From Ilumatobacteraceae bacterium (GTDB lineage Bacteria; Actinomycetota; Acidimicrobiia; Acidimicrobiales; Ilumatobacteraceae): a DNA stretch of 64,000 nucleotides. Under the pieces are notes generated by a model, which worked only from the letters and a program-made list of their open reading frames with translations, made no database searches and had not been told where the DNA came from. Both the position numbers and the translations under genes were made by a program. Each line of letters starts with the position of its first letter. The stretch's first letter is position 1. This document shows positions 29,310-48,206 of this stretch, piece after piece. The stretch covers positions 17,578 through 81,577 of the forward strand of contig JBFWSW010000005.1 in the NCBI GenBank assembly GCA_050248155.1. The letters are read 5' to 3'.

Positions 29310-32300
29310 TCAGCTGCAGCCGCTGGTGCTGCCGCAGCTCGGGCAGGCGTGGCACGAGCCGGCGCGGATCATCTGCACGCCGCACTGCATGCACATCGGC
29401 GCGTCGGACTGGCGCGGGCGGGTCGCCCCACTCGGGTTGGTGACGTCGTTGTTCGGAGCGTCGGGCGCGACACCGAGGTCGAGCTGGGTCTGCAGCTCGG
29501 ACACGGACGGCACCGACTTCGGATCGGGCGCCAGCTCGGATCCGTTCGAGGTCTCGACCACGCTCTCCTCGACGCCGGGCAGCGTGGGCTGCAGGCGCTC
29601 GTTCACCGAGAAGATGCCGAGCTCGGCGCGCTCGTCGTAGGTCATGTACTCGAGCGCCAGGCGCCGGAACAGGTAGTCCATGATCGACGAGGCGAAGCGG
29701 ATGTCGGGATCGTCGGTCATGCCGGCCGGTTCGAAGCGCATGTTGGTGAACGCCTCGACGAACGCTCGCAGCGGCACGCCGTACTGGAGGCCGTAGCTGA
29801 TGCTCTTGGCGAAGGCGTCCATGATGCCGCTGAGCGTCGAGCCCTGCTTCGACACGGTGAGGAAGATCTCGCCCGGTCGCCCGTCGGCGTACTCGCCGAT
29901 GTTGGCGAAGCCCTTGCAGTCGGCCACCCGGAACTCGAAGGTGCGCGCCCGCCGGGTGCGCGGCAGCTTCTGACGCACCGGCTGGTGGACGATCTTCTCG
30001 ACGATCTTCTCGATCACCTGCGTCGCGGCCTGCTCGGGCGCGTCGGCCGCGCCGTCCTTCTTGGCCGTGCTGAGCGGCTGGGCGACCTTGCAGTTGTCGC
30101 GGTAGATCGCCACGGCCTTCAGGCCGAGCTCCCAGCTCAGCTGGTGCAGTGCCTCGACGTCTTCGACCGAGGCCTCTTCGGGCATGTTGACCGTCTTGGA
30201 GATCGCACCCGACAGGAACGGCTGCGTCGCGCCCATCATGCGCACGTGGCCCTCGTAGTGGATGGTGTTGTCGCCCATCGAGCAGGCGAACACCGCGATG
30301 TGCTCGGGCGCGAGGTGCGGCGCGCCGAGGATGGACTTCTCGGCGTCGATGTAGGCGACGATCTCGTCGACCTGCTGGGGCGTGTAGCCCAATCGGCGCA
30401 GCGCCCTCGGGATGGTCTGGTTGACGATGACCATCGTGCCTCCGCCCACCAGCTTCTTCATCTTGCACAGCCCGAGGTCGGGCTCGATGCCGGTGGTGTC
30501 ACAGTCCATCATCAGGCCGATGGTGTTGTGGCTGACGAAGCCGTTGGCGACATAGGTGACGTTGGCCGGAACGGACAGGTCGTAGGTGAGCTCCTCGTCC
30601 CCCAGCTCGGCGGTGGCCACTTCGTCGACGAAGAACCCCATCAGGTGGGCGAGCTCTGCATCGGCCGAGGCGGCGAGCAACTGCTCGGCGAGCCGGCGCG
30701 TGATCGTGCCTGAGCGGCGGTGCTCCATGAGGGCGACCGTGCGGTCGCGACCAGCGAGCGGCGCCACCCGATCGATGAGCTCGCGGCTGACCGGGATGTG
30801 ATCGTGCCGAGCCGACTGCGCGATGTCGCGCACGTCGACCTTGGCCCACTTGCGTTGCGAGATGAAGCCGATGTCGTCGAGCCACGCCTGGTTGCACGCA
30901 CGGTTCAACAGCCGGACGACGTGGAGCTGAGACCCGCGACCGCTCGTGCCCTGCGACCGGGTCGTGACGAAGCCGAGCGCGAGCAGCAGCGTCTGGACCT
31001 CGGCCGCGAACCCCTTCAACGTGGTGGTCCACGACGGGTAGCCGCTGACCACCGTACCGTCCGCCTCGAACAGGCCGCGAACGAAGGCTCGGTACACACC
31101 GGCGTCGTTGGTGTGCAGCACGGCGTCGGGGATGTGCGGCACGTACCCCTTGCCACTGTGACCCTCACGCGGCAGTCGCTTGGCGAAGCCCGACGCGGCC
31201 CACCACTCGGCCAACCGAACGGAGTGGAAGGCGACCTCGATGTAGCCGCCCTTGGCCGCCACCGCTGCGGTCAGACCGAACAGCTCCTTGCCGAGCCACT
31301 CGAGGTGGGCGACGACGTCGAGATCGTTCGCGTCGACGCAGAACCGCAGCCCGCGAGCGTGCAGCGAACCGTCGCCCATGAAGTAGCCGATCAGCTCGGC
31401 GAGGTCGGCGTCCATGGTGCGCGGCACGCTGACGTGGTGCTCGCCTGCCCACGCCATCTGCTCGGCGAGTGGCGGGAGCACGACCTCGTTCGGTGAGCCG
31501 ACGAGGCCGCCGAGCCGCATCGGCACCCGATCGCCGGCGCGGAGGTCGGCGAAGCGGCGCCACACCCACTGGCCCGACTCGTCGATGACCTTGATGCGGT
31601 GCTTCGTGGTGCCCTGGATCTGGTACCCACGAGCCGTCGTGACATCGACGACCTGCTCGAGACCGTTGACGTAGAACTTGGTGGCATCCCGCTCGCCCTC
31701 GTCGGTCTGGACCTTGAACGAGACGTCCTGCCACTGCGCACCGTCGGGATCGCCGAGCGTCGCCAGCCGGACCAATCCCTTCGACGTCATGACGAGCGAG
31801 CCACCGACGAGGCAGCCCGTGGGAGCCAACACCGAAGCCTGGCTGTTGCGCACGCCGTACTCCTCGCCGTCGCGCACCGCGGCTTCCCACGCCTCCTGCC
31901 CTGCCCGAACCAGGGCCTCGGGAACGGCGTCGGCGCCCTCGATCGCATATGACGCGTCGCGGTGCATGCGCAGCACGTTGAGCATGTGCACCTCGTTGTC
32001 GGCGAAGCCGGCGAAGGGACCCATGCGGCTGGCGGTGCGCGCGCTGGTGGCGTACGCATGCCCGGTCATGAGCGACGTGAGCGCTGCTGCCCATGCACGC
32101 CCCTCGACCGAGTCGTAGGGCAGACCGAGCGCCATGAGCAGCGCGCCGAGGTTCGCGTAGCCGATGCCGAGCTGACGGAACTTGCGGCTGGTCGCGGCGA
32201 TCGGCTCGGTCGGGTAGTCGGCCCGGCCGACGAGGATCTCCTGCGCGGTGAAGATCGTCTCGACGGTGTGCATGTAGGCCTCGATGTCGAAGCTGTCCTC

Positions 32301-34646
32301 GCCGACCGAGTCGAGGTCGAGGAACTTCAACAGGTTGATCGACGCGAGGTTGCACGCCGAGTTGTCGAGGTGCATGTACTCGCTGCAGTTGCGCACCACG
32401 ACGCCGTTCGCGACGTAGCTGTGGTTGCGCGGCTCGCTGAGGTTGTAGGTGAGCTCGACGCCGTCGTCGGTACGTGAGACCAGCCGGGTGGTGCTCTGGT
32501 GCTTGGCGTAGAACCGATGCTCGGCGAGGAGGTTTGCCAGCTTGTCGCGCTTGGAGCCGACGGTGAAGCCGACGACATCGGCGAACCGCCGGATCGAGCC
32601 GGCGGAGATGCGCAGGTCGAACATCGGGCCGGCGCTGTACGTCTGCTCGTCGCCCGCCACCGTCGTGTACGGGAACACGCCGCCGACCGAGGACGTGCGG
32701 GTGGCGTAGATCGAGCTGGAGATGCCGAGCGTGGTGAGCAGTCGCTGTGCGCCCTGCAGGAGCCGCTTGGAGGCCGAGCCGAGACCGACGTATCGGCTCT
32801 TGACACCGTCGTACACACAGCCGTCGGCGTCGAACAACCCGCGCAGGAACGCTGCGACGACCTCGCTCGGCGCCTCGTTGATCGCCCACGGGACGACCTT
32901 CTCGGCAGCCCGCGAGTCGCTGACCCCGAGCGCACAGAGCTGGGCAGCGAAGGCCCGACGCCCGGATCGCAGCTGCACCGTGCCGTTGGCTTGCACCGAC
33001 GGCTTGGGCACCGAGCCGCCGATGTCGGTCAGCAGGAGGCGATGCGCCGGCATCACGTCGTCGCGGTCGTCGGCGTTGCCGTACACGGTCGTCACCATGT
33101 CGCCGCTGATCGCTCCGTCACCGACGAGCCAGCCGAGATAGTGCCCCAGCTCCTCGGTCCACTTCTCCGGCAAGGCCAATGATGTCGCGAGGCGGCGGTC
33201 GCCGGCGACGAGCGACGCTGCATCGGAGGCCACCGGGAGCGCCCACGACGCGTGGACGGCCGGCGTCGCGTGGTTCAAGATGCGGACGTCGTCGTCCGGC
33301 GTCAGGTTCTCGGCCTCGACGTACCCACGATTCGCGGTGAAGATGCGGTGGCCGGCGGTGCAGCGCAGCTCCATCCCGTTGGAGAACTCCAACCGGACGA
33401 TCTCGTTCACGCCGGTGACCATGATCGCCTCGGGGCTGGTGACCTCGACTCGGTCGGCTGGCGCGTCGGGGCTCGTGACGTCGTGGGTGTACACGCCGAA
33501 GGACTCGCCCTGGCGCGCCCGATCGAGCAGGTCGACGAACGACACGAGGCCCTTGTCGGTGTGGACGAGGGTGTCACCGGTGAAGCATGGGTTGGATCCG
33601 TTGATGCGACCGGTCGTGTGCGCGGTGTGCCACTTGTTGATGGTGGTGTCGAACTGGAGGCCCGGGTCGGCGCACTCCCACGAAGCCTGGGCGATCTGGC
33701 GCCACAGATCGCGAGCGCGCACGGTGCGGATGACCGAGCCGTCGAGCACGGCTCGGTAGTGCCAGTCGGCGTCGTCGACCACCGCTTGCATGAACTCGTC
33801 GGTGACGCGGACCGAGTTGTTCGCGTTCTGGTACTGGATGCTGAAGCTGTCGGCGCCGTCGAGGTCCATGTCGAACCCGGCGTCGCGCAGCACGCGAGCC
33901 TTGCGCTCCTCTTTCACCTTGCACCAGATGAACTCTTCGATGTCGGGGTGGTCGGCGTTGAGGATGACCATCTTGGCGGCGCGACGCGTCTTGCCGCCGC
34001 TCTTGATCGTGCCGGCCGACGCGTCGGCGCCGCGCATGAAGCTGACCGGCCCGCTGGCCGTGCCACCGCCGTTCAACAGCTCGTAGCTGGAGCGGATCTT
34101 CGACAGGTTGATGCCCGAGCCCGACCCGCCCTTGAAGATGACGCCCTCTTCCCGGTACCAGTTGAGGATGCCGTCCATCGTGTCGTCGACGGAGAGGATG
34201 AAGCACGCGCTCGCCTGCTGCGGCACGCCCTTCACGCCGATGTTGAACCACACCGGGCTGTTGAACGCGGCGCGCTGGGTGATGAGGATGTACTTGAGCT
34301 CGTCGCTGAAGGTTTCGGCCTCGGCCTCGTCGACGAAGTAGCCGCCCTCGCGACCCCACTCGGTGATCGTGTCGACCACGCGATCGACGACCTGGCGCAA
34401 CGACGACTCGCGCTCGGGTGTGCCCTGCGTGCCGCGGAAGTACTTCTGCGCCACGATGTTGGTGGCGTTCAGCGACCAGCCGACCGGGAACTCGACCCCG
34501 AGCTGCTCGAAGGCGACCGAACCGTCCTTCCAGTTCGTGATCCTGGCGTCGCGCCGCTCCCATGCCACCTGGTCGTACGGGTGTTGGCCCGGCGTCGTGA
34601 AGTGCCGCTCGAGGCCGATGGAGAGACGTTCGGGCGCCAGGGACAT
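29310..34646 (-). CDS. nrdJ: Class II (adenosylcobalamin-dependent) ribonucleotide reductase, interrupted by two inteins
   Basis: ATG 34646 (MSLAPERLS) is preceded by AGGAG. Extein blocks are FILSVDDTMDGI, GGSGSGINLS, GSNP|CSEYMHLDNSACNLASINL and LAPTG|TIGLMMDCDTTGIEPD. A C-terminal Cys-rich tail is present. The exteins sum to 948 aa. Confidence 0.95.
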   Translation of the reverse strand: MSLAPERLSIGLERHFTTPGQHPYDQVAWERRDARITNWKDGSVAFEQLGVEFPVGWSLNATNIVAQKYFRGTQGTPERESSLRQVVDRVVDTITEWGREGGYFVDEAEAETFSDELKYILITQRAAFNSPVWFNIGVKGVPQQASACFILSVDDTMDGILNWYREEGVIFKGGSGSGINLSKIRSSYELLNGGGTASGPVSFMRGADASAGTIKSGGKTRRAAKMVILNADHPDIEEFIWCKVKEERKARVLRDAGFDMDLDGADSFSIQYQNANNSVRVTDEFMQAVVDDADWHYRAVLDGSVIRTVRARDLWRQIAQASWECADPGLQFDTTINKWHTAHTTGRINGSNPCFTGDTLVHTDKGLVSFVDLLDRARQGESFGVYTHDVTSPDAPADRVEVTSPEAIMVTGVNEIVRLEFSNGMELRCTAGHRIFTANRGYVEAENLTPDDDVRILNHATPAVHASWALPVASDAASLVAGDRRLATSLALPEKWTEELGHYLGWLVGDGAISGDMVTTVYGNADDRDDVMPAHRLLLTDIGGSVPKPSVQANGTVQLRSGRRAFAAQLCALGVSDSRAAEKVVPWAINEAPSEVVAAFLRGLFDADGCVYDGVKSRYVGLGSASKRLLQGAQRLLTTLGISSSIYATRTSSVGGVFPYTTVAGDEQTYSAGPMFDLRISAGSIRRFADVVGFTVGSKRDKLANLLAEHRFYAKHQSTTRLVSRTDDGVELTYNLSEPRNHSYVANGVVVRNCSEYMHLDNSACNLASINLLKFLDLDSVGEDSFDIEAYMHTVETIFTAQEILVGRADYPTEPIAATSRKFRQLGIGYANLGALLMALGLPYDSVEGRAWAAALTSLMTGHAYATSARTASRMGPFAGFADNEVHMLNVLRMHRDASYAIEGADAVPEALVRAGQEAWEAAVRDGEEYGVRNSQASVLAPTGCLVGGSLVMTSKGLVRLATLGDPDGAQWQDVSFKVQTDEGERDATKFYVNGLEQVVDVTTARGYQIQGTTKHRIKVIDESGQWVWRRFADLRAGDRVPMRLGGLVGSPNEVVLPPLAEQMAWAGEHHVSVPRTMDADLAELIGYFMGDGSLHARGLRFCVDANDLDVVAHLEWLGKELFGLTAAVAAKGGYIEVAFHSVRLAEWWAASGFAKRLPREGHSGKGYVPHIPDAVLHTNDAGVYRAFVRGLFEADGTVVSGYPSWTTTLKGFAAEVQTLLLALGFVTTRSQGTSGRGSQLHVVRLLNRACNQAWLDDIGFISQRKWAKVDVRDIAQSARHDHIPVSRELIDRVAPLAGRDRTVALMEHRRSGTITRRLAEQLLAASADAELAHLMGFFVDEVATAELGDEELTYDLSVPANVTYVANGFVSHNTIGLMMDCDTTGIEPDLGLCKMKKLVGGGTMVIVNQTIPRALRRLGYTPQQVDEIVAYIDAEKSILGAPHLAPEHIAVFACSMGDNTIHYEGHVRMMGATQPFLSGAISKTVNMPEEASVEDVEALHQLSWELGLKAVAIYRDNCKVAQPLSTAKKDGAADAPEQAATQVIEKIVEKIVHQPVRQKLPRTRRARTFEFRVADCKGFANIGEYADGRPGEIFLTVSKQGSTLSGIMDAFAKSISYGLQYGVPLRAFVEAFTNMRFEPAGMTDDPDIRFASSIMDYLFRRLALEYMTYDERAELGIFSVNERLQPTLPGVEESVVETSNGSELAPDPKSVPSVSELQTQLDLGVAPDAPNNDVTNPSGATRPRQSDAPMCMQCGVQMIRAGSCHACPSCGSTSGCS
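30525..31814 (-). mobile_element. NrdJ intein 2 (430 aa, LAGLIDADG endonuclease domain)
   Basis: Starts CLVGGSLV after LAPTG and has block B TTKH. The LAGLIDADG motifs are LIGYFMGDGSL and VRGLFEADGTV. It ends FVSHN and is followed by +1 Thr (TIGLMMDC). Confidence 0.9.
32388..33587 (-). mobile_element. NrdJ intein 1 (400 aa, LAGLIDADG endonuclease domain)
   Basis: Starts CFTGDTLV after GSNP and has block B TAGH. The LAGLIDADG motifs are LGWLVGDGAI and LRGLFDADGCV. It ends VVVRN and is followed by +1 Cys of the NPCSE motif. Confidence 0.9.
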
Positions 34647-34725
34647 GAGGACTCCTAGAGTGGTTCGGCGAGTGATGCGGGCGGCTTGCGAGGTGTGCGG
34701 CCAGGCTCTCGACCGCGGAATCAGA

Positions 34726-34784
34726 ACCACAAGATGTGGTGGCAGGCCGACCCCCGAACCGGCGAGCACCACAACATGTGAGGT
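34726..34784. promoter_or_regulatory. Two CCACAA-N2/3-TGTG palindromes in the nrdJ leader
   Basis: ACCACAAGATGTGGT lies at 34726-34740 and ACCACAACATGTGAGGT at 34768-34784. These are candidate operators (NrdR?). Confidence 0.45.
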
Positions 34785-34798
34785 GTTGAGGGCTATGA

Positions 34799-34828
34799 AA
34801 ATTACAGCAATGTAATTACACCTGTCAA
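34799..34828 (-). promoter_or_regulatory. Putative nrdJ promoter: TTGACA - 18 nt - TAATTT
   Basis: The minus strand reads TTGACAggtgtaattacattgctgTAATTT. This is the only AT-rich patch in the region, about 150 nt upstream of the ATG. Confidence 0.55.
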
Positions 34829-34878: not shown

Positions 34879-35125
34879 GACAGCGGGCGAGCGGCTGCCC
34901 GGTCGCAGGTAGGAGGACCTTGCCCCACAACGTGTCCGATCCTTGGCCCGATCACCCGATCGACGTTGACCATCCGCGCCGTGCACCGCTGCCCGCTGCA
35001 GCCGCCGACAGTAGGACCACCGTCCTGTGGGGAGAAAGAGGGACAAGGCTGTGAATTTCGCTGTGGAGGACCGCCACAACCTGTGGGCGACGCGCGGCGC
35101 ACCGGCGATGACATGATCGTCGGTC

Positions 35126-36372: not shown

Positions 36373-37386
36373 GTGCGTGCCGGTCGCCTCGTCCAGCTCG
36401 TGTTGCTGCTCCAACGCAGCGGGCACGTCACGGCGGCGTGGCTCGCTCACGAGCTCGAGGTGTCGGTGCGCACCGTGTACCGCGACATCGAGGCGCTGAG
36501 CGGCATCGGAATCCCGGTGCTCACGTCGAGCGGACCCGGTGGCGGGGTCAGCTTGCTCGACGGCTACCAGACGCGACTCACGGGGCTGACCGGCGCCGAA
36601 GCCGGCGCGCTGGGACTCGCGGGAGTGCCCGAGGTGGCCGCGCAACTCGGCATGCGGTCACTCCTCATGGCCGCGCAGGCAAAGGTGGATGCCGCGCTGC
36701 CCCCGGAGCTCCGGCAGCGGTCGATGCGGCTGCGCGAGCGGTTCCTCGTCGACGCCCCGGGCTGGTTCGAGCAAGCCGACCCGCCGACCTTCCTCGAGCC
36801 GATCAGCGCTGCGGTGTGGGACGGCCGGCAGCTCGAGATCCGCTACGAGCGATCGGGCACGGTCGTGCGGCGCCGCGTCGATCCGCTCGGCCTGGTCCTG
36901 AAAGGTGCGCGTTGGTACGTGGTCGCGGTCGGCCGGCGTCCGGCGGGGCTGCGGCTCTACCGCGTCGACCGCGTCCGGGGCGTGCGCACGCTCGCCGACG
37001 CAGTCGTCCGGCCCGATGGCTTCGACCTCGCGATCGCCTGGGGTGAGCTCGGTCGCGACTTCGACCGGCACCTCCGACGTGTCGCCGTGCGCATCGCGAT
37101 GCCGGCCGACGAGCTCTGGCGGCTCCGCCACGCGTTGACCGGGCCCGCCGCAGAGGAGGCCGCGTCCACGGCGAGCGACCATCCCGATGGGCGGCGGGTC
37201 ATGACCGTTCACTCCGAGTCGGTGGAGGTGGCCCACGACGAGCTCGTGCGTCTGGGTCGGCACGTGGAGGTGCTCGAACCACCCGAGCTTCGTGCGATGC
37301 TCGCCGAGACTGCGACGGTGATGGCTGAACGCCACCGAGGCCAGGTGACCGCCGCGGTCAGGCGGGCGCCGACTGCAGCTTCTTGA
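36373..37386 (+). CDS. HTH-WYL-WCX transcriptional regulator (PafB/PafC-like, YafY family)
   Basis: The N-terminal wHTH reads VTAAWLAHELEVSVRTVYRDIEAL. The WYL domain reads LEIRYERSGTVVRRRVDPLGLVLKGARWYVVAV ... LRLYRVDRV. A C-terminal extension follows. Confidence 0.85.
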   Translation: MRAGRLVQLVLLLQRSGHVTAAWLAHELEVSVRTVYRDIEALSGIGIPVLTSSGPGGGVSLLDGYQTRLTGLTGAEAGALGLAGVPEVAAQLGMRSLLMAAQAKVDAALPPELRQRSMRLRERFLVDAPGWFEQADPPTFLEPISAAVWDGRQLEIRYERSGTVVRRRVDPLGLVLKGARWYVVAVGRRPAGLRLYRVDRVRGVRTLADAVVRPDGFDLAIAWGELGRDFDRHLRRVAVRIAMPADELWRLRHALTGPAAEEAASTASDHPDGRRVMTVHSESVEVAHDELVRLGRHVEVLEPPELRAMLAETATVMAERHRGQVTAAVRRAPTAAS

Positions 37387-37822
37387 GCAGCACCAGTTCG
37401 CGCTGGAAATCGGCCGCCGCGTCGAACCCCTTGTAGACAGAGGCGAACCGGAGGTACACGACCTCGTCGAGCGAGCGCAGCCGTTCGAGCACCGCGAGGC
37501 CGATCATCTGACTGCTGACCTCGCCGGTGACGAGGCGCATCTCGTCCTCGACCTGCTCGGCCACCTGCTCGATCTGCTCGGCCGAGATCGGACGGCCCTT
37601 GCCGGCTGCGGCGACACCGGCCACGATCTTCGAGCGGTCGAAGGGCTCGCGGCCACCGTTCGACTTCGAGATGACGAGCGGAGTGGTCTCGAGTCGCTCG
37701 TAGGTCGTGAAGCGATGGCCGCACTGCGTGCACGAGCGGCGACGCCGGATGGCCGCGCCCTCCTCGGACTCGCGCGAATCGATCACCTTGGTGTCGTCGG
37801 CGCGGCAACGGGGACATCGCAT
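37358..37822 (-). CDS. nrdR: Transcriptional repressor NrdR (Zn-ribbon + ATP-cone)
   Basis: Starts MRCPRCRADDTKVIDSR ... CTQCGHRFTTYE, followed by an ATP-cone. Confidence 0.95.
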   Translation of the reverse strand: MRCPRCRADDTKVIDSRESEEGAAIRRRRSCTQCGHRFTTYERLETTPLVISKSNGGREPFDRSKIVAGVAAAGKGRPISAEQIEQVAEQVEDEMRLVTGEVSSQMIGLAVLERLRSLDEVVYLRFASVYKGFDAAADFQRELVLLKKLQSAPA

Positions 37823-38413: not shown

Positions 38414-39064
38414 ATGGCTGAATCGACGTCCCGCAGCTCGTCCGCACTCACCACCCGGCAGCGAGGCATCCTCGACGTCATCGAGACCTCGATGCGCGAG
38501 CGCGGGTACCCGCCGAGCGTCCGCGAGATCGGCGAGTCGGTCGGGCTCACCTCGCCCTCCACCGTGCACAGCCACCTCGCATCGCTCGAGCGGATGGGCT
38601 ACCTGCGGCGCGACCCCACCAAGCCCCGCGCGCTCGAGGTGCGCTTCGACCCATCGTCGGGGGCGGCGATCGAGCGGCGACACGTGCGCCACGTCCCCCT
38701 CGTCGGCGACGTCGCCGCCGGCACCGACGTGCTCGCCCAGGAGAACGTCGAGGAGCTCTATCCCCTGCCCGAGGACTTCACCGGCACGGGCGAGCTCTTC
38801 ATGCTCCGGGTGCGTGGCGACTCGATGATCGGCGCAGGCATCATGGATGGCGACTTCGTCGTGTGCCGCGCCCAGCCCACGGCCGACAACGGACAGATCG
38901 TGGTCGCGGGCATCCCCGGCGACGAGGCGACCGTGAAGACCTACCAGCGCAGCGGCGCGACCGTCACCCTGGTCCCGGCGAACGATCGTCTCGACCCGAT
39001 GGTGTTCGGCGCCGACGACGTCACGATCTACGGCCGCGTCGTCACCGTCATGCGTCGCCTCTGA
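38414..39064 (+). CDS. lexA: LexA repressor
   Basis: Contains LTTRQRGILDVIETSMRERGYPPSVREIGESVGL (wHTH) and the S24 peptidase motifs GDSMIGAGIMDGD and ATVKTY. Confidence 0.95.
   Translation: MAESTSRSSSALTTRQRGILDVIETSMRERGYPPSVREIGESVGLTSPSTVHSHLASLERMGYLRRDPTKPRALEVRFDPSSGAAIERRHVRHVPLVGDVAAGTDVLAQENVEELYPLPEDFTGTGELFMLRVRGDSMIGAGIMDGDFVVCRAQPTADNGQIVVAGIPGDEATVKTYQRSGATVTLVPANDRLDPMVFGADDVTIYGRVVTVMRRL

Positions 39065-46073: not shown

Positions 46074-48206
<2,133 letters not shown>

Follow-up and report, generated by a model that had tools for sequence, protein, structure and literature searches.

A class II ribonucleotide reductase gene of an uncultured actinobacterium, very probably interrupted by two unrelated inteins with predicted LAGLIDADG endonucleases

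Introduction

Can a reading frame of 1778 codons that carries two large inserts, one of them directly in front of the putative radical cysteine, encode a working ribonucleotide reductase (RNR)? This question is raised by an nrdJ locus in a metagenome-assembled genome of an uncultured Ilumatobacteraceae-like actinobacterium, of which we analysed a stretch of 64,000 nucleotides (the window). Among bacterial proteins, RNR ranks second in the number of inteins, of which 211 have been counted (PMC4760082). An earlier reading of the window, made from its letters and here called the sequence-only reading, had interpreted both inserts as inteins. Our data suggest that the locus is, with high probability, a functional nrdJ gene interrupted by two unrelated class 1 inteins, each bearing a LAGLIDADG endonuclease, and sequence comparisons and structural models predict self-splicing and homing.

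Results

Anatomy of the precursor gene

The gene starts with an ATG at position 34646 and ends with the stop codon at 29310 of the minus strand, which corresponds to a protein of 1778 amino acids. In a mechanical list of open reading frames, the nrdJ frame runs on to 35114. Comparison with the homologues indicates that the ATG at 34646, and not 35114, is the true start, because it is preceded by an AGGAG ribosome-binding site and because the N-terminus MSLAPERLSIG is common to these proteins. The sequence-only reading had divided the frame into 948 residues of extein and two inteins (32388-33587, 400 aa; 30525-31814, 430 aa), and our coordinates agree exactly with this division (Table 1). The splice junctions (marked by arrows) are GSNP↓C…N↓CSEY for intein 1 and APTG↓C…HN↓TIG for intein 2, and a mature extein of 948 aa is left when both inteins are removed. 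The locus is best annotated as a single functional nrdJ with a mature enzyme of 948 aa, and not as 'LAGLIDADG family homing endonuclease'. NCBI uses the latter name for P0003, a partial protein of 748 aa that belongs to the same cluster at 90% identity.

Table 1. Features of the nrdJ locus and its upstream region (window positions)
Feature	Position	Strand	Description
nrdJ precursor CDS	29310..34646	-	1778 codons + stop; extein and two inteins; NCBIfam PRK06556, Pfam
N-extein	33588..34646	-	aa 1-353, last residues RINGSNP
Intein 1	32388..33587	-	aa 354-753, 400 aa, CFTGDT...VVVRN; between GSNP and CSEYMHLDNSACNLASINL
Intein 1 endonuclease core (approximate)	32514..33170	-	intein residues ~140-358; YLGWLVGDG (D157), FLRGLFDADG (D255); Pfam LAGLIDADG_3 E 1.7e-19
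Middle extein	31815..32387	-	aa 754-944, CSEYMHLDNSACNL ... SVLAPTG
Intein 2	30525..31814	-	aa 945-1374, 430 aa, CLVGGS...FVSHN; after LAPTG, +1 residue Thr
Intein 2 endonuclease core and extra helical region (approximate)	30639..31418	-	intein residues ~133-392; LIGYFMGDG (D148), FVRGLFEADG (E250, D252); LAGLIDADG_3 E 2.6e-15
C-extein	29310..30524	-	aa 1375-1778 + stop codon; Pfam TSCPD
C-terminal Cys-rich zinc-finger/redox tail	29316..29393	-	CxxC-x9-CxxCxxC-x5-C
AGGAG ribosome-binding site	34652..34656	-	5 nt before ATG; invariant in five homologous loci
Putative NrdR box 1	34768..34780	-	CACATGTTGTGGT; TTGTGG core invariant in five loci; predicted function
Putative NrdR box 2	34726..34738	-	CACATCTTGTGGT; 42 bp downstream of box 1; predicted function
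Possible promoter	34801..34828	-	TTGACA, 16-nt spacer, TGTAAT with TGC before; read by eye, putative
nrdR	37358..37822	-	2.7 kb upstream of nrdJ, same strand; Pfam Zn_ribbon_NrdR E 9e-21, ATP-cone E 3.5e-16

Host enzyme and active-site cysteine

Pfam searches with the precursor returned Ribonuc_red_lgC (E 4.6e-126), Ribonuc_red_2_N and TSCPD together with two LAGLIDADG_3 and two Intein_splicing matches. The NCBIfam NrdJ equivalog PRK06556 was matched with 1373.8 bits (cut-off 859) in three stretches that break exactly at both inserts, and TIGR02504 scored 526 (cut-off 400). We assign the host protein to the adenosylcobalamin-dependent class II RNRs of the NrdJd type. Its extein is colinear with the intein-free NrdJ structure 7b9q across both junctions, including GSNPCSEYM (E 1e-180). 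The sequence-only reading had identified the +1 nucleophile of intein 1 as the active-site cysteine of the NPC(S/G)E motif, and the alignments bear this out: the +1 Cys aligns with C322 of Thermotoga maritima NrdJ and the next Cys (ACNL) with residue 333. Once intein 1 is removed, the N-P-C-x-E motif of the radical loop is re-formed together with the partner redox Cys in NPCSEYMHLDNSAC, in which the first Cys corresponds to T. maritima 322 and the second one to 333. Following the established literature, we take C322 to be the thiyl-radical cysteine and residue 333 to be its redox partner.

The C-terminal tail contains six Cys with a spacing of 3, 10, 3, 3 and 6. This spacing is identical to that of the zinc-finger cysteines (Cys920/923/933/936/939/945) of the Stackebrandtia nassauensis NrdJd (PMC5704485). 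Among the called genes, which cover window positions 1-63813, no second RNR was found, and the corresponding claim of the sequence-only reading was correct. For the extein of intein-bearing lineages we obtained dN/dS values of 0.09-0.16. These values suggest that the host gene is functional and that the inteins must therefore splice.

Upstream region

When we compared the 5' regions of five homologous loci, the most conserved elements were two putative NrdR boxes. They are copies of the repeat CACAT(C/G)TTGTGGT, which occurs twice in the window, 42 bp apart, compared with 0.01 copies expected by chance. In putative box 2, ACATCTTGTGGT is the same in all five loci, although their 5' regions have otherwise diverged. 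The nrdR gene, which encodes a repressor of RNR genes, is located upstream of nrdJ (Table 1). The possible promoter read by eye is partly conserved in two of the homologous loci (L003 and L004); a consensus scan called no promoter, this TTGACA/TGTAAT candidate included. A scan for terminators gave matches at chance level, and when the entire window was searched with Rfam, two tRNAs were the only matches, with no cobalamin riboswitch or other element near nrdJ.

Splicing residues and predicted structures

Intein 1 carries C1, T77-x-x-H80, LVGDG (D157), FDADG (D255) and N400; the corresponding motifs of intein 2 are C1, T69-x-x-H72, MGDG (D148), FEADG (D252, plus E250), H429 and N430. In the family of intein 1 (92 sequences), C1, T77 and H80 are present in 92 members each, N400 in 91, and D157 and D255 in 89 each. 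Conservation is similar in the family of intein 2, where C1, T69, H72, D412, H429 and N430 were each found in 102/102 sequences and D148 and D252 in 90 each. At each of these catalytic positions, the inteins of the window agree with the consensus of their families.

Towards their C-terminal ends the two inteins differ. Intein 1 ends with VVRN↓C and carries Arg399 in place of the penultimate His; at this position its family has R (71), A (14), S (6) or M (1), and never His. The block-F Asp is replaced by Asn382, and Asn is found there in 92/92 family members. Intein 2 ends with VSHN↓T and has both the penultimate H429 and the block-F D412, with Val419 at the position of the block-F His. Thus, the motif assignment of the sequence-only reading holds for block A Cys1, block B TxxH, the two LAGLIDADG motifs with their acidic residues and the terminal Asn, which are intact in both inteins, but the term 'canonical' is too strong for intein 1 with its family-wide deviations, the terminal Arg-Asn and the block-F Asn. 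Many class 1 inteins possess a penultimate His and a block-F Asp, but neither is required (PMC4031507), and inteins without these residues can splice according to Chen, Benner and Perler (2000), as cited in PMC4031507. Since intein 1 lacks these two commonly assisting residues, and intein 2 the block-F His, splicing may be slow or conditional.

The AF2 models of both inteins (pLDDT 93.2 for intein 1 and 92.5 for intein 2) display the full intein-plus-endonuclease fold, with the LAGLIDADG helices of intein 1 at residues 145-157 and 241-255. In Foldseek, the best match of both models was the TliVMA intein (E 4e-22 for intein 1, 4e-24 for intein 2; TM up to 0.75, the value of the intein-2 model). 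Other matches included PI-PfuI, PI-TkoII, PI-SceI, I-DmoI and I-Tsp061I. For the Hint fold, NrdJ-1 and the Mxe GyrA mini-intein were also matched, and for the pseudo-dimeric alpha-beta-beta-alpha-beta-beta-alpha endonuclease fold I-DmoI was matched with a target TM of 0.64-0.75. On the sequence level, TIGR01445 (intein N-terminal region) matches both inteins and TIGR01443 (C-terminal region) matches intein 2. Judged by motifs and models, both inserts are class 1 inteins (Hint fold) with a monomeric two-motif LAGLIDADG endonuclease, and both splicing and cleavage are predicted.

We also considered that one intein is a duplicate of the other. Their mutual identity is only 24%, and this idea was dropped.

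Distribution among relatives

To locate insertion sites we used pairwise MAFFT alignments, since chained BLAST HSPs gave too much noise. Across 119 full-length NrdJ relatives, the inserts fall on five discrete sites, and the same pair of sites as in the window is occupied in about 55 of them. One of the relatives is a protein of 3035 aa with five inteins; others hold one, three or four. Among the matches listed for intein 1, the SNP↓CF junction was present in 53/120 and the N↓CSEY junction in 34/120. The corresponding numbers for intein 2, again among the matches listed, were 47/120 (APTG↓CL) and 73/120 (HN↓TI). In species-representative genomes, a relative of intein 1 was located exactly between extein residues 353 and 354 in all 80 cases examined. 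The importance that the sequence-only reading had given to the locus presupposed that the arrangement is rare. This assumption did not hold, since Actinomycetota NrdJ very often carries the two inteins at these two sites. By comparison of homologues, the two-intein arrangement is a known phenomenon, present in many Actinomycetota NrdJ and in hundreds of related genomes. A search of the open-access literature for names (InBase RIR1 letters) already given to either insertion site found none, so that no letters are assigned here.

Among close relatives, either intein can be missing. Intein 1 is absent from P0253 and L004 and likewise from P0256; intein 2 is absent from P0259 and L005. In P0253, L004, P0259 and L005 the absence is exact to the codon and in frame. 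The five relatives with an extein identity of at least 90% display three different intein contents. The closest pair consists of L002, which has both inteins, and L005, which has intein 1 only and shows a precise gap at the other site; their exteins are 99.4-100% identical. Between these two alleles, divergence amounts to 3-14% over precursor residues ~650 to ~1650 and to 0-2% at the gene ends. This pattern was not sharp enough to call a co-conversion tract around the intein-2 site.

Discussion

Proposed mechanism

We propose that nrdJ is translated as a 1778-aa precursor, from which each intein would remove itself by the standard class 1 pathway. Cys1 would undergo an N-S acyl shift, and the +1 residue (the radical Cys for intein 1, Thr for intein 2) would attack the thioester. 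Cyclisation of the terminal Asn would then release the intein, and a final acyl shift would yield a normal peptide bond. The expected product is the 948-aa NrdJ, a presumably essential enzyme, with its NPCSE radical loop and its APTGTIG loop re-formed. Until both inteins are gone, the catalytic barrel should be unable to assemble. The predicted targets of the endonucleases are nrdJ alleles that lack the inteins; these would be cleaved at the two insertion sites, so that the inteins are copied in (homing). Such homing would account for the patchy occurrence of inteins among close relatives.

Is homing still part of the life cycle?

An alternative, which we regard as unlikely but which deserves serious weighing, is that both inteins splice while homing has been lost. 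The inteins would then be fixed vertical passengers that keep their endonuclease domain for folding and splicing only. Consistent with this, intein identity follows extein identity (Spearman 0.71 and 0.77), which suggests that inheritance has been mostly vertical and that endonuclease activity need not be current. The GC3 of the inteins (91%) is similar to that of the exteins (94%) and gives no sign of a recent foreign origin. When both inteins were compared by tblastn with 50,697 phage records, no close relative and thus no transfer vector was identified among these records. The best phage inteins were 21-25% identical. By annotation, their host genes were terminase, DNA polymerase or RecA, and never RNR; others came from records that bear no annotation. 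Moreover, the LAGLIDADG acidic residues are kept by 88-97% of the members of both families, so that about 3-12% have lost one of them and decay does occur.

However, the copies in the window keep both acidic residues in both inteins, and the dN/dS values of the endonuclease domains (intein 1, 0.19-0.24; intein 2, 0.15-0.24) indicate purifying selection. As weighed against loss of homing, endonuclease values of 0.16-0.24 are only about 1.5-2 times as high as that of the extein. The same comparison gave a twofold higher dS for the inteins. This selection could reflect a structural role in precursor folding and not DNA cleavage, but a 154-aa mini-intein (P0358) occupies the same site, which implies that the endonuclease domain is not needed for splicing there. 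Loss of homing is also difficult to reconcile with the precise presence or absence of intein 2 in the nearly identical exteins of L002 and L005, and with the spread of intein-1 identity from 55% to 75% at extein identities of 83-86%, which suggests some replacement or exchange of intein 1. We favour inteins with predicted splicing and homing; near-identical alleles that differ by the precise presence or absence of an intein fit a homing cycle. The alleles of L002 and L005 are natural substrates for homing assays.

Does intein 1 control maturation of the enzyme?

Splicing of intein 1 might act as a post-translational switch, in which a disulfide trap formed under oxidative stress delays RNR maturation and dNTP supply. 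In accordance with such a switch, Cys1, Cys76 (91/92 family members, beside the block-B Thr) and Cys+1 are conserved, disulfides of catalytic Cys make other inteins redox-sensitive (PMC4031507), and one of the two inteins of Mycobacterium smegmatis DnaB is reversibly inhibited by H2O2 (PMC6195587). The lack of a penultimate His and of the block-F Asp is compatible with slow, tunable splicing. The proposal is drawn purely by analogy, however; Cys+1 is conserved for the need of the enzyme and not of the intein, and many close relatives (P0253, P0256) lack intein 1, so that any regulatory role would be dispensable. We consider this scenario quite improbable, and a role of the intein-1 family as redox- or condition-gated maturation switch for the possibly sole RNR of these Acidimicrobiia is doubtful at best. 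If it were true, the switch would couple dNTP supply to the cellular state.

There is practically no probability left for ordinary lineage-specific NrdJ domains or for a pseudogene replaced by another RNR, to which the unusual length of the frame alone might point and which the alignments already refute: as the sequence-only reading had held, the inserts are inteins and not domains, since the extein is colinear with 7b9q, close relatives and solved NrdJ structures lack either insert precisely and in frame, and both inserts display the signatures and the folds of inteins and of LAGLIDADG proteins; the 5.3-kb frame is intact, the extein dN/dS is ~0.1 and the ribosome-binding site and upstream boxes are conserved.

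The locus with its two predicted inteins is a clean, fully intact addition to the large family of active-site actinobacterial NrdJ inteins and leaves the current understanding unchanged. For intein biochemists, the intein-1 family is of interest because the penultimate His and the block-F Asp are missing throughout and because its splice nucleophile is the putative thiyl-radical cysteine. In addition, the NrdJ clade with its five sites and up to five inteins (3035 aa) may represent an unusually saturated natural system for interactions between neighbouring inteins.

Comparison with known systems

The closest known counterparts are Actinomycetota proteins that NCBI names 'intein-containing adenosylcobalamin-dependent ribonucleoside-diphosphate reductase'. 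Host protein, intein families and the two insertion sites, which follow residues 353 and 544 of the extein, are the same as in the window. Examples are the MAG proteins P0244 and P0245 and the locus L043 of Micromonospora lutea NBRC 106530. The overall length, about 1750-1810 aa, is shared with the window protein as well. Identities to the inteins of the window amount to 77-78% in the nearest relatives and to 51-73% in 80 species representatives. The differences concern only sequence divergence and host lineage, and some relatives have one, three, four or five inteins.

Pyrococcus NrdJ is also a class II RNR with several LAGLIDADG inteins (PI-PfuI, PDB 1dq3, and a second Pyrococcus RNR intein). 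PI-PfuI matches the models of the window inteins with E-values of 3.5e-16 and 4e-18. The 1684-position NCBIfam model PRK08332 describes an intein-bearing NrdJ. Its colinear match begins within intein 1 and continues into the extein, with protein residues 495-946 aligned to model positions 1000-1420 and intein residue 400 at model position 1241. This continuity across the C-terminal junction of intein 1 indicates that the model, too, contains an intein at NP↓C. The same-site Pyrococcus intein is probably PI-PfuII (382 aa). In contrast to the window, the Pyrococcus host is archaeal, identities in structural alignments are only ~14-15%, and PRK08332 has no intein at APTG↓T.

The metagenomic split intein NrdJ-1 (PDB 8ubs) also resides in a class II RNR. 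It resembles the N-terminal splicing region of intein 1 (phmmer E 1e-6; Foldseek rmsd 1.7 A over 107 columns, 25% identity), but unlike intein 1 it is a naturally split mini-intein without endonuclease. Presumably, its insertion point lies one residue downstream (NPC↓SE). NrdJ-1 uses Ser as +1 residue (PMC11168065) and thus cannot sit directly before the radical Cys.

The VMA inteins of Thermococcus litoralis and Pyrococcus horikoshii (PDB 7qss, 7qsu, 7qst) and PI-SceI were the best overall structural matches, in which a two-motif LAGLIDADG endonuclease is nested in a Hint domain (TM 0.63-0.75; sequence matches with E ~2e-6; 12-19% identity). Unlike in the window, their host is the archaeal or yeast V-type ATPase subunit A. 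M. smegmatis DnaB, like the window NrdJ, is a replication-linked actinobacterial protein with two inteins (PMC6195587). Its host protein is different, however, and DnaBi1 belongs to class 3 and is demonstrably under redox control; for the NrdJ inteins such control is hypothetical. Finally, the Aquifex aeolicus NrdB intein is an RNR intein that parts catalytic residues and whose excision has to precede formation of the active site, although in a different host protein; this R2 intein splits the metal ligands and yet splices efficiently (PMC8772380).

Structure of the nrdJ gene and its inteins

The nrdJ reading frame starts at an ATG with an AGGAG motif 5 nt upstream, and both this motif and the N-terminus (MSLAPERLSIG) are kept in the homologous loci. 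Because of this conservation, an extension of the frame to position 35114 was rejected as start of the gene. The ORF, the coordinates and lengths of both inteins and the 948-aa extein had all been proposed by the sequence-only reading and were reproduced exactly (see table).

Coordinates of nrdJ, its inteins and other features of the window
Feature	Position (nt)	Strand	Length	Remarks
nrdJ precursor	29310-34646	minus	1778 codons	ORF; start ATG 34646, stop 29310
intein 1	32388-33587	minus	400 aa	residues 354-753; flanks GSNP / CSEYMHLDNSACNLASINL
intein 2	30525-31814	minus	430 aa	residues 945-1374; N-side flank LAPTG
nrdR	37358-37822	minus		same strand as nrdJ, 2.7 kb upstream
lexA	38414-39064	plus		adjoins nrdR, a few kb upstream of nrdJ
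recA	46074-48206	minus	710 aa	carries the third intein of the window
recA intein	46512-47597	minus	362 aa	LAGLIDADG_2-type endonuclease

In the precursor, Pfam identified the class II RNR N-terminal domain, the RNR barrel (E 4.6e-126) and TSCPD together with two LAGLIDADG_3 and two intein splicing domains, and the generic intein N- and C-terminal NCBIfam models also matched. The NrdJ equivalog PRK06556 (NCBIfam) scored 1373.8 bits (cut-off 859) in three stretches, which break at both inserts. When the inserts were removed, the extein was colinear with 7b9q, a structure of NrdJ without inteins (E 1e-180), and the alignment ran unbroken through GSNPCSEYM and through the intein-2 junction. The cysteine following intein 1 aligned with residue 322 of Thermotoga maritima NrdJ, the thiyl-radical cysteine of class II RNRs, and the next cysteine (ACNL) with residue 333, one of their redox-active pair. 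The radical cysteine therefore occupies the +1 nucleophile position of intein 1, which bears out the earlier assignment of an active-site cysteine to this position.

With a mutual identity of only 24%, inteins 1 and 2 are independent elements. We aligned relatives taken from full-length NrdJ homologues, 92 for intein 1 and 102 for intein 2, and found that the inteins of the window match the family consensus at all catalytic positions. For intein 1, these are Cys1, Thr77, His80, Asp157, Asp255, His389 and Asn400, with Asp157 and Asp255 at the ends of its two LAGLIDADG helices; for intein 2, they are Cys1, Thr69, His72, Asp148, Asp252, Asp412, His429 and Asn430. Thus, the block A Cys1, block B TxxH, acidic LAGLIDADG residues and terminal Asn recognized in the initial inspection are confirmed at family level. 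The penultimate residue of the 92 intein-1 sequences is Arg (71), Ala (14), Ser (6) or Met (1) and never His, and their block-F Asp position is always Asn; the block-F His position of intein 2 is Val. Penultimate His and block-F residues assist the reaction but are not obligatory, and inteins splicing without a penultimate His have been described (PMC4031507).

Selection and inheritance

Regional dN/dS ratios were calculated (Nei-Gojobori) on the DNA of four close relatives. The extein gave values of 0.09-0.16, and the host gene is strongly constrained in intein-carrying lineages; such constraint can be understood only if the inteins are spliced out. For the endonuclease domains we obtained 0.16-0.24, and therefore these domains are constrained, too. 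When the nrdJ of the window was compared with its homologous loci L002-L005, dS of both inteins (about 0.85-1.1) was approximately double the extein value in the same gene pairs (about 0.45-0.65), which could reflect separate intein histories or an artefact of the method.

Intein content is patchy even in the closest relatives: of the five whose extein identity is 90% or higher, two carry both inteins, two only intein 2 and one only intein 1. Two loci of the same study, L002 (ENA ERZ28573519) and L005 (ERZ28573513), have a protein-level extein identity of 99.4-100%, and the 430-aa intein 2 present in L002 is missing from L005 with codon precision. Recent homing or precise loss would lead to such a difference; nucleotide divergence between the two loci is modestly raised around the intein-2 site. 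These alleles are natural substrates for testing homing. Overall, intein and extein identities are correlated (Spearman 0.71 and 0.77 for the two inteins), but intein-1 identity scatters from 55% to 75% at extein identities of 83-86%. Correlation and scatter together suggest mainly vertical inheritance, with an occasional gain, loss or replacement. The composition of the inteins is host-like (GC3 91% vs. 94% for the exteins), and no close relatives of either intein were found in GenBank phages.

Proposed maturation and homing

Translation would yield a 1778-aa precursor unable to form the ten-stranded barrel active site, with the radical loop split by intein 1 and the APTG(T/S) loop by intein 2. 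Each excision would involve an acyl shift by Cys1, transesterification by Cys+1 (intein 1) or Thr+1 (intein 2), cyclisation of the terminal Asn and a final acyl shift, giving the native 948-aa NrdJ. The freed LAGLIDADG endonucleases should cut intein-free alleles and thereby drive homing. This textbook sequence of splicing and homing is the best-supported reading of our data, which document the anatomy, residues, fold, selection and polymorphism of the inteins; splicing, DNA cleavage and essentiality of the enzyme are inferred. The analogy with DnaB and other inteins (PMC6195587, PMC4031507) makes a regulatory variant conceivable, though improbable, in which Cys1, Cys76 and Cys+1 would act as a redox trap of intein 1; close relatives manage without this intein.

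Gene calls and Pfam over positions 1-63813 revealed no other RNR subunit, in agreement with what had first been noted for the window. The interval from nrdR to nrdJ holds a gene for a WYL-domain regulator as well as one PNPOx-like and one RibD_C gene. The nrdJ leader (34726-34780) contains two 13-nt repeats, CACAT(C/G)TTGTGGT, which are 42 bp apart (0.01 expected by chance) and which are the most conserved elements in the otherwise diverged upstream regions of five loci; we interpret these repeats as putative NrdR boxes. At about 35074-35085, some 40 bp in front of the divergent RibD_C-domain gene, there is a third copy that fits the repeat more loosely, CACAGGTTGTGG. Rfam found no riboswitch. 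The recA intein is inserted at ...IGVMFG↓CFSYD...GVMVHN↓SPETTPGG (arrows, junctions).

Distribution of NrdJ inteins

Intein-bearing NrdJ of this type is very common. Protein searches returned 172 relatives of intein 1 and 263 of intein 2, and nearly all of the best 120 of each have either an RNR barrel domain or a name that refers to RNR. In every junction-spanning sequence among these, the junctions read SNP↓CF... / ...(R/A/S)N↓CSEY for intein 1 and APTG↓CL... / ...HN↓TI(G/S/A) for intein 2. A whole-precursor search gave 119 long NrdJ homologues, and pairwise alignment to the extein placed their inserts at five positions only (after extein residues 147, 215, 353, 544 and 654); site 147 directly precedes another conserved cysteine (ASA↓CFILS). 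The pair found in the window, 353 and 544, is the commonest (about 55 of the 119), and the remainder include proteins with one, three or four inteins. Four sites each are filled in P0347, P0351 and P0352 (2612-2631 aa) and all five in P0267, a 3035-aa protein of an Acidimicrobiales MAG. Scanning one genome per GTDB species revealed a relative at 569 or more loci. All 80 loci kept have the intein-1 relative precisely at the junction of extein residues 353/354, and about one fifth additionally contain intein 2. Their hosts are mostly Acidimicrobiia, but also cultured Micromonospora, Nitriliruptoraceae, Nanopelagicales and Limnocylindrales.

Two homologues, P0350 and P0358, carry variant inteins at the NP↓C site: one ends with Gln instead of Asn, and the other, a mini-intein of 154 aa, lacks an endonuclease and ends canonically with His-Asn. 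Four stand-alone proteins of 422-434 aa from Yinghuangia/Streptodolium, named 'LAGLIDADG family homing endonuclease', resemble intein 1 (P0081, P0091, P0095) or intein 2 (P0238) with 38-41% identity over the full length. The splice junctions are degenerate in the three sequences read (P0081, P0091, P0095), and all four proteins could be derivatives of inteins that became free-standing or were domesticated.

Comparison with known systems

AlphaFold models built from homologue alignments reached a mean pLDDT of 93.2 (intein 1) and 92.5 (intein 2) with a pTM of 0.92, and the top structural matches of both were complete, endonuclease-bearing inteins. TliVMA was matched with E 4e-22 (intein 1) and 4e-24 (intein 2) at TM ≤0.75, and PhoVMA, PI-TkoII, PI-SceI and PI-PfuI, the last of these from the RNR gene of Pyrococcus furiosus, were also among the best matches. 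The PDB entry of PI-PfuI describes an archaeal intein-encoded homing endonuclease. The endonuclease cores matched I-DmoI, and the splicing domains matched the NrdJ-1 and Mxe GyrA mini-inteins. At the C-terminus of NrdJ, six cysteines are spaced 3-10-3-3-6, as in the zinc-finger and redox tail characterized in Stackebrandtia NrdJd (PMC5704485).

The NCBIfam model PRK08332, which describes intein-bearing NrdJ in 1684 positions, matched colinearly from within intein 1 over its C-terminal junction into the extein, and therefore a curated model that includes an intein at this NP↓C site already exists. The product name 'intein-containing adenosylcobalamin-dependent ribonucleoside-diphosphate reductase' is current at NCBI, and bacterial RNRs, with 211 inteins, ranked second only to DnaB in the survey of Novikova et al. 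(PMC4760082). Taken together, the sequence-only reading was correct in observation and interpretation, and the feature is ordinary for its lineage: the two-intein nrdJ is a further example of a well-populated and already named kind.
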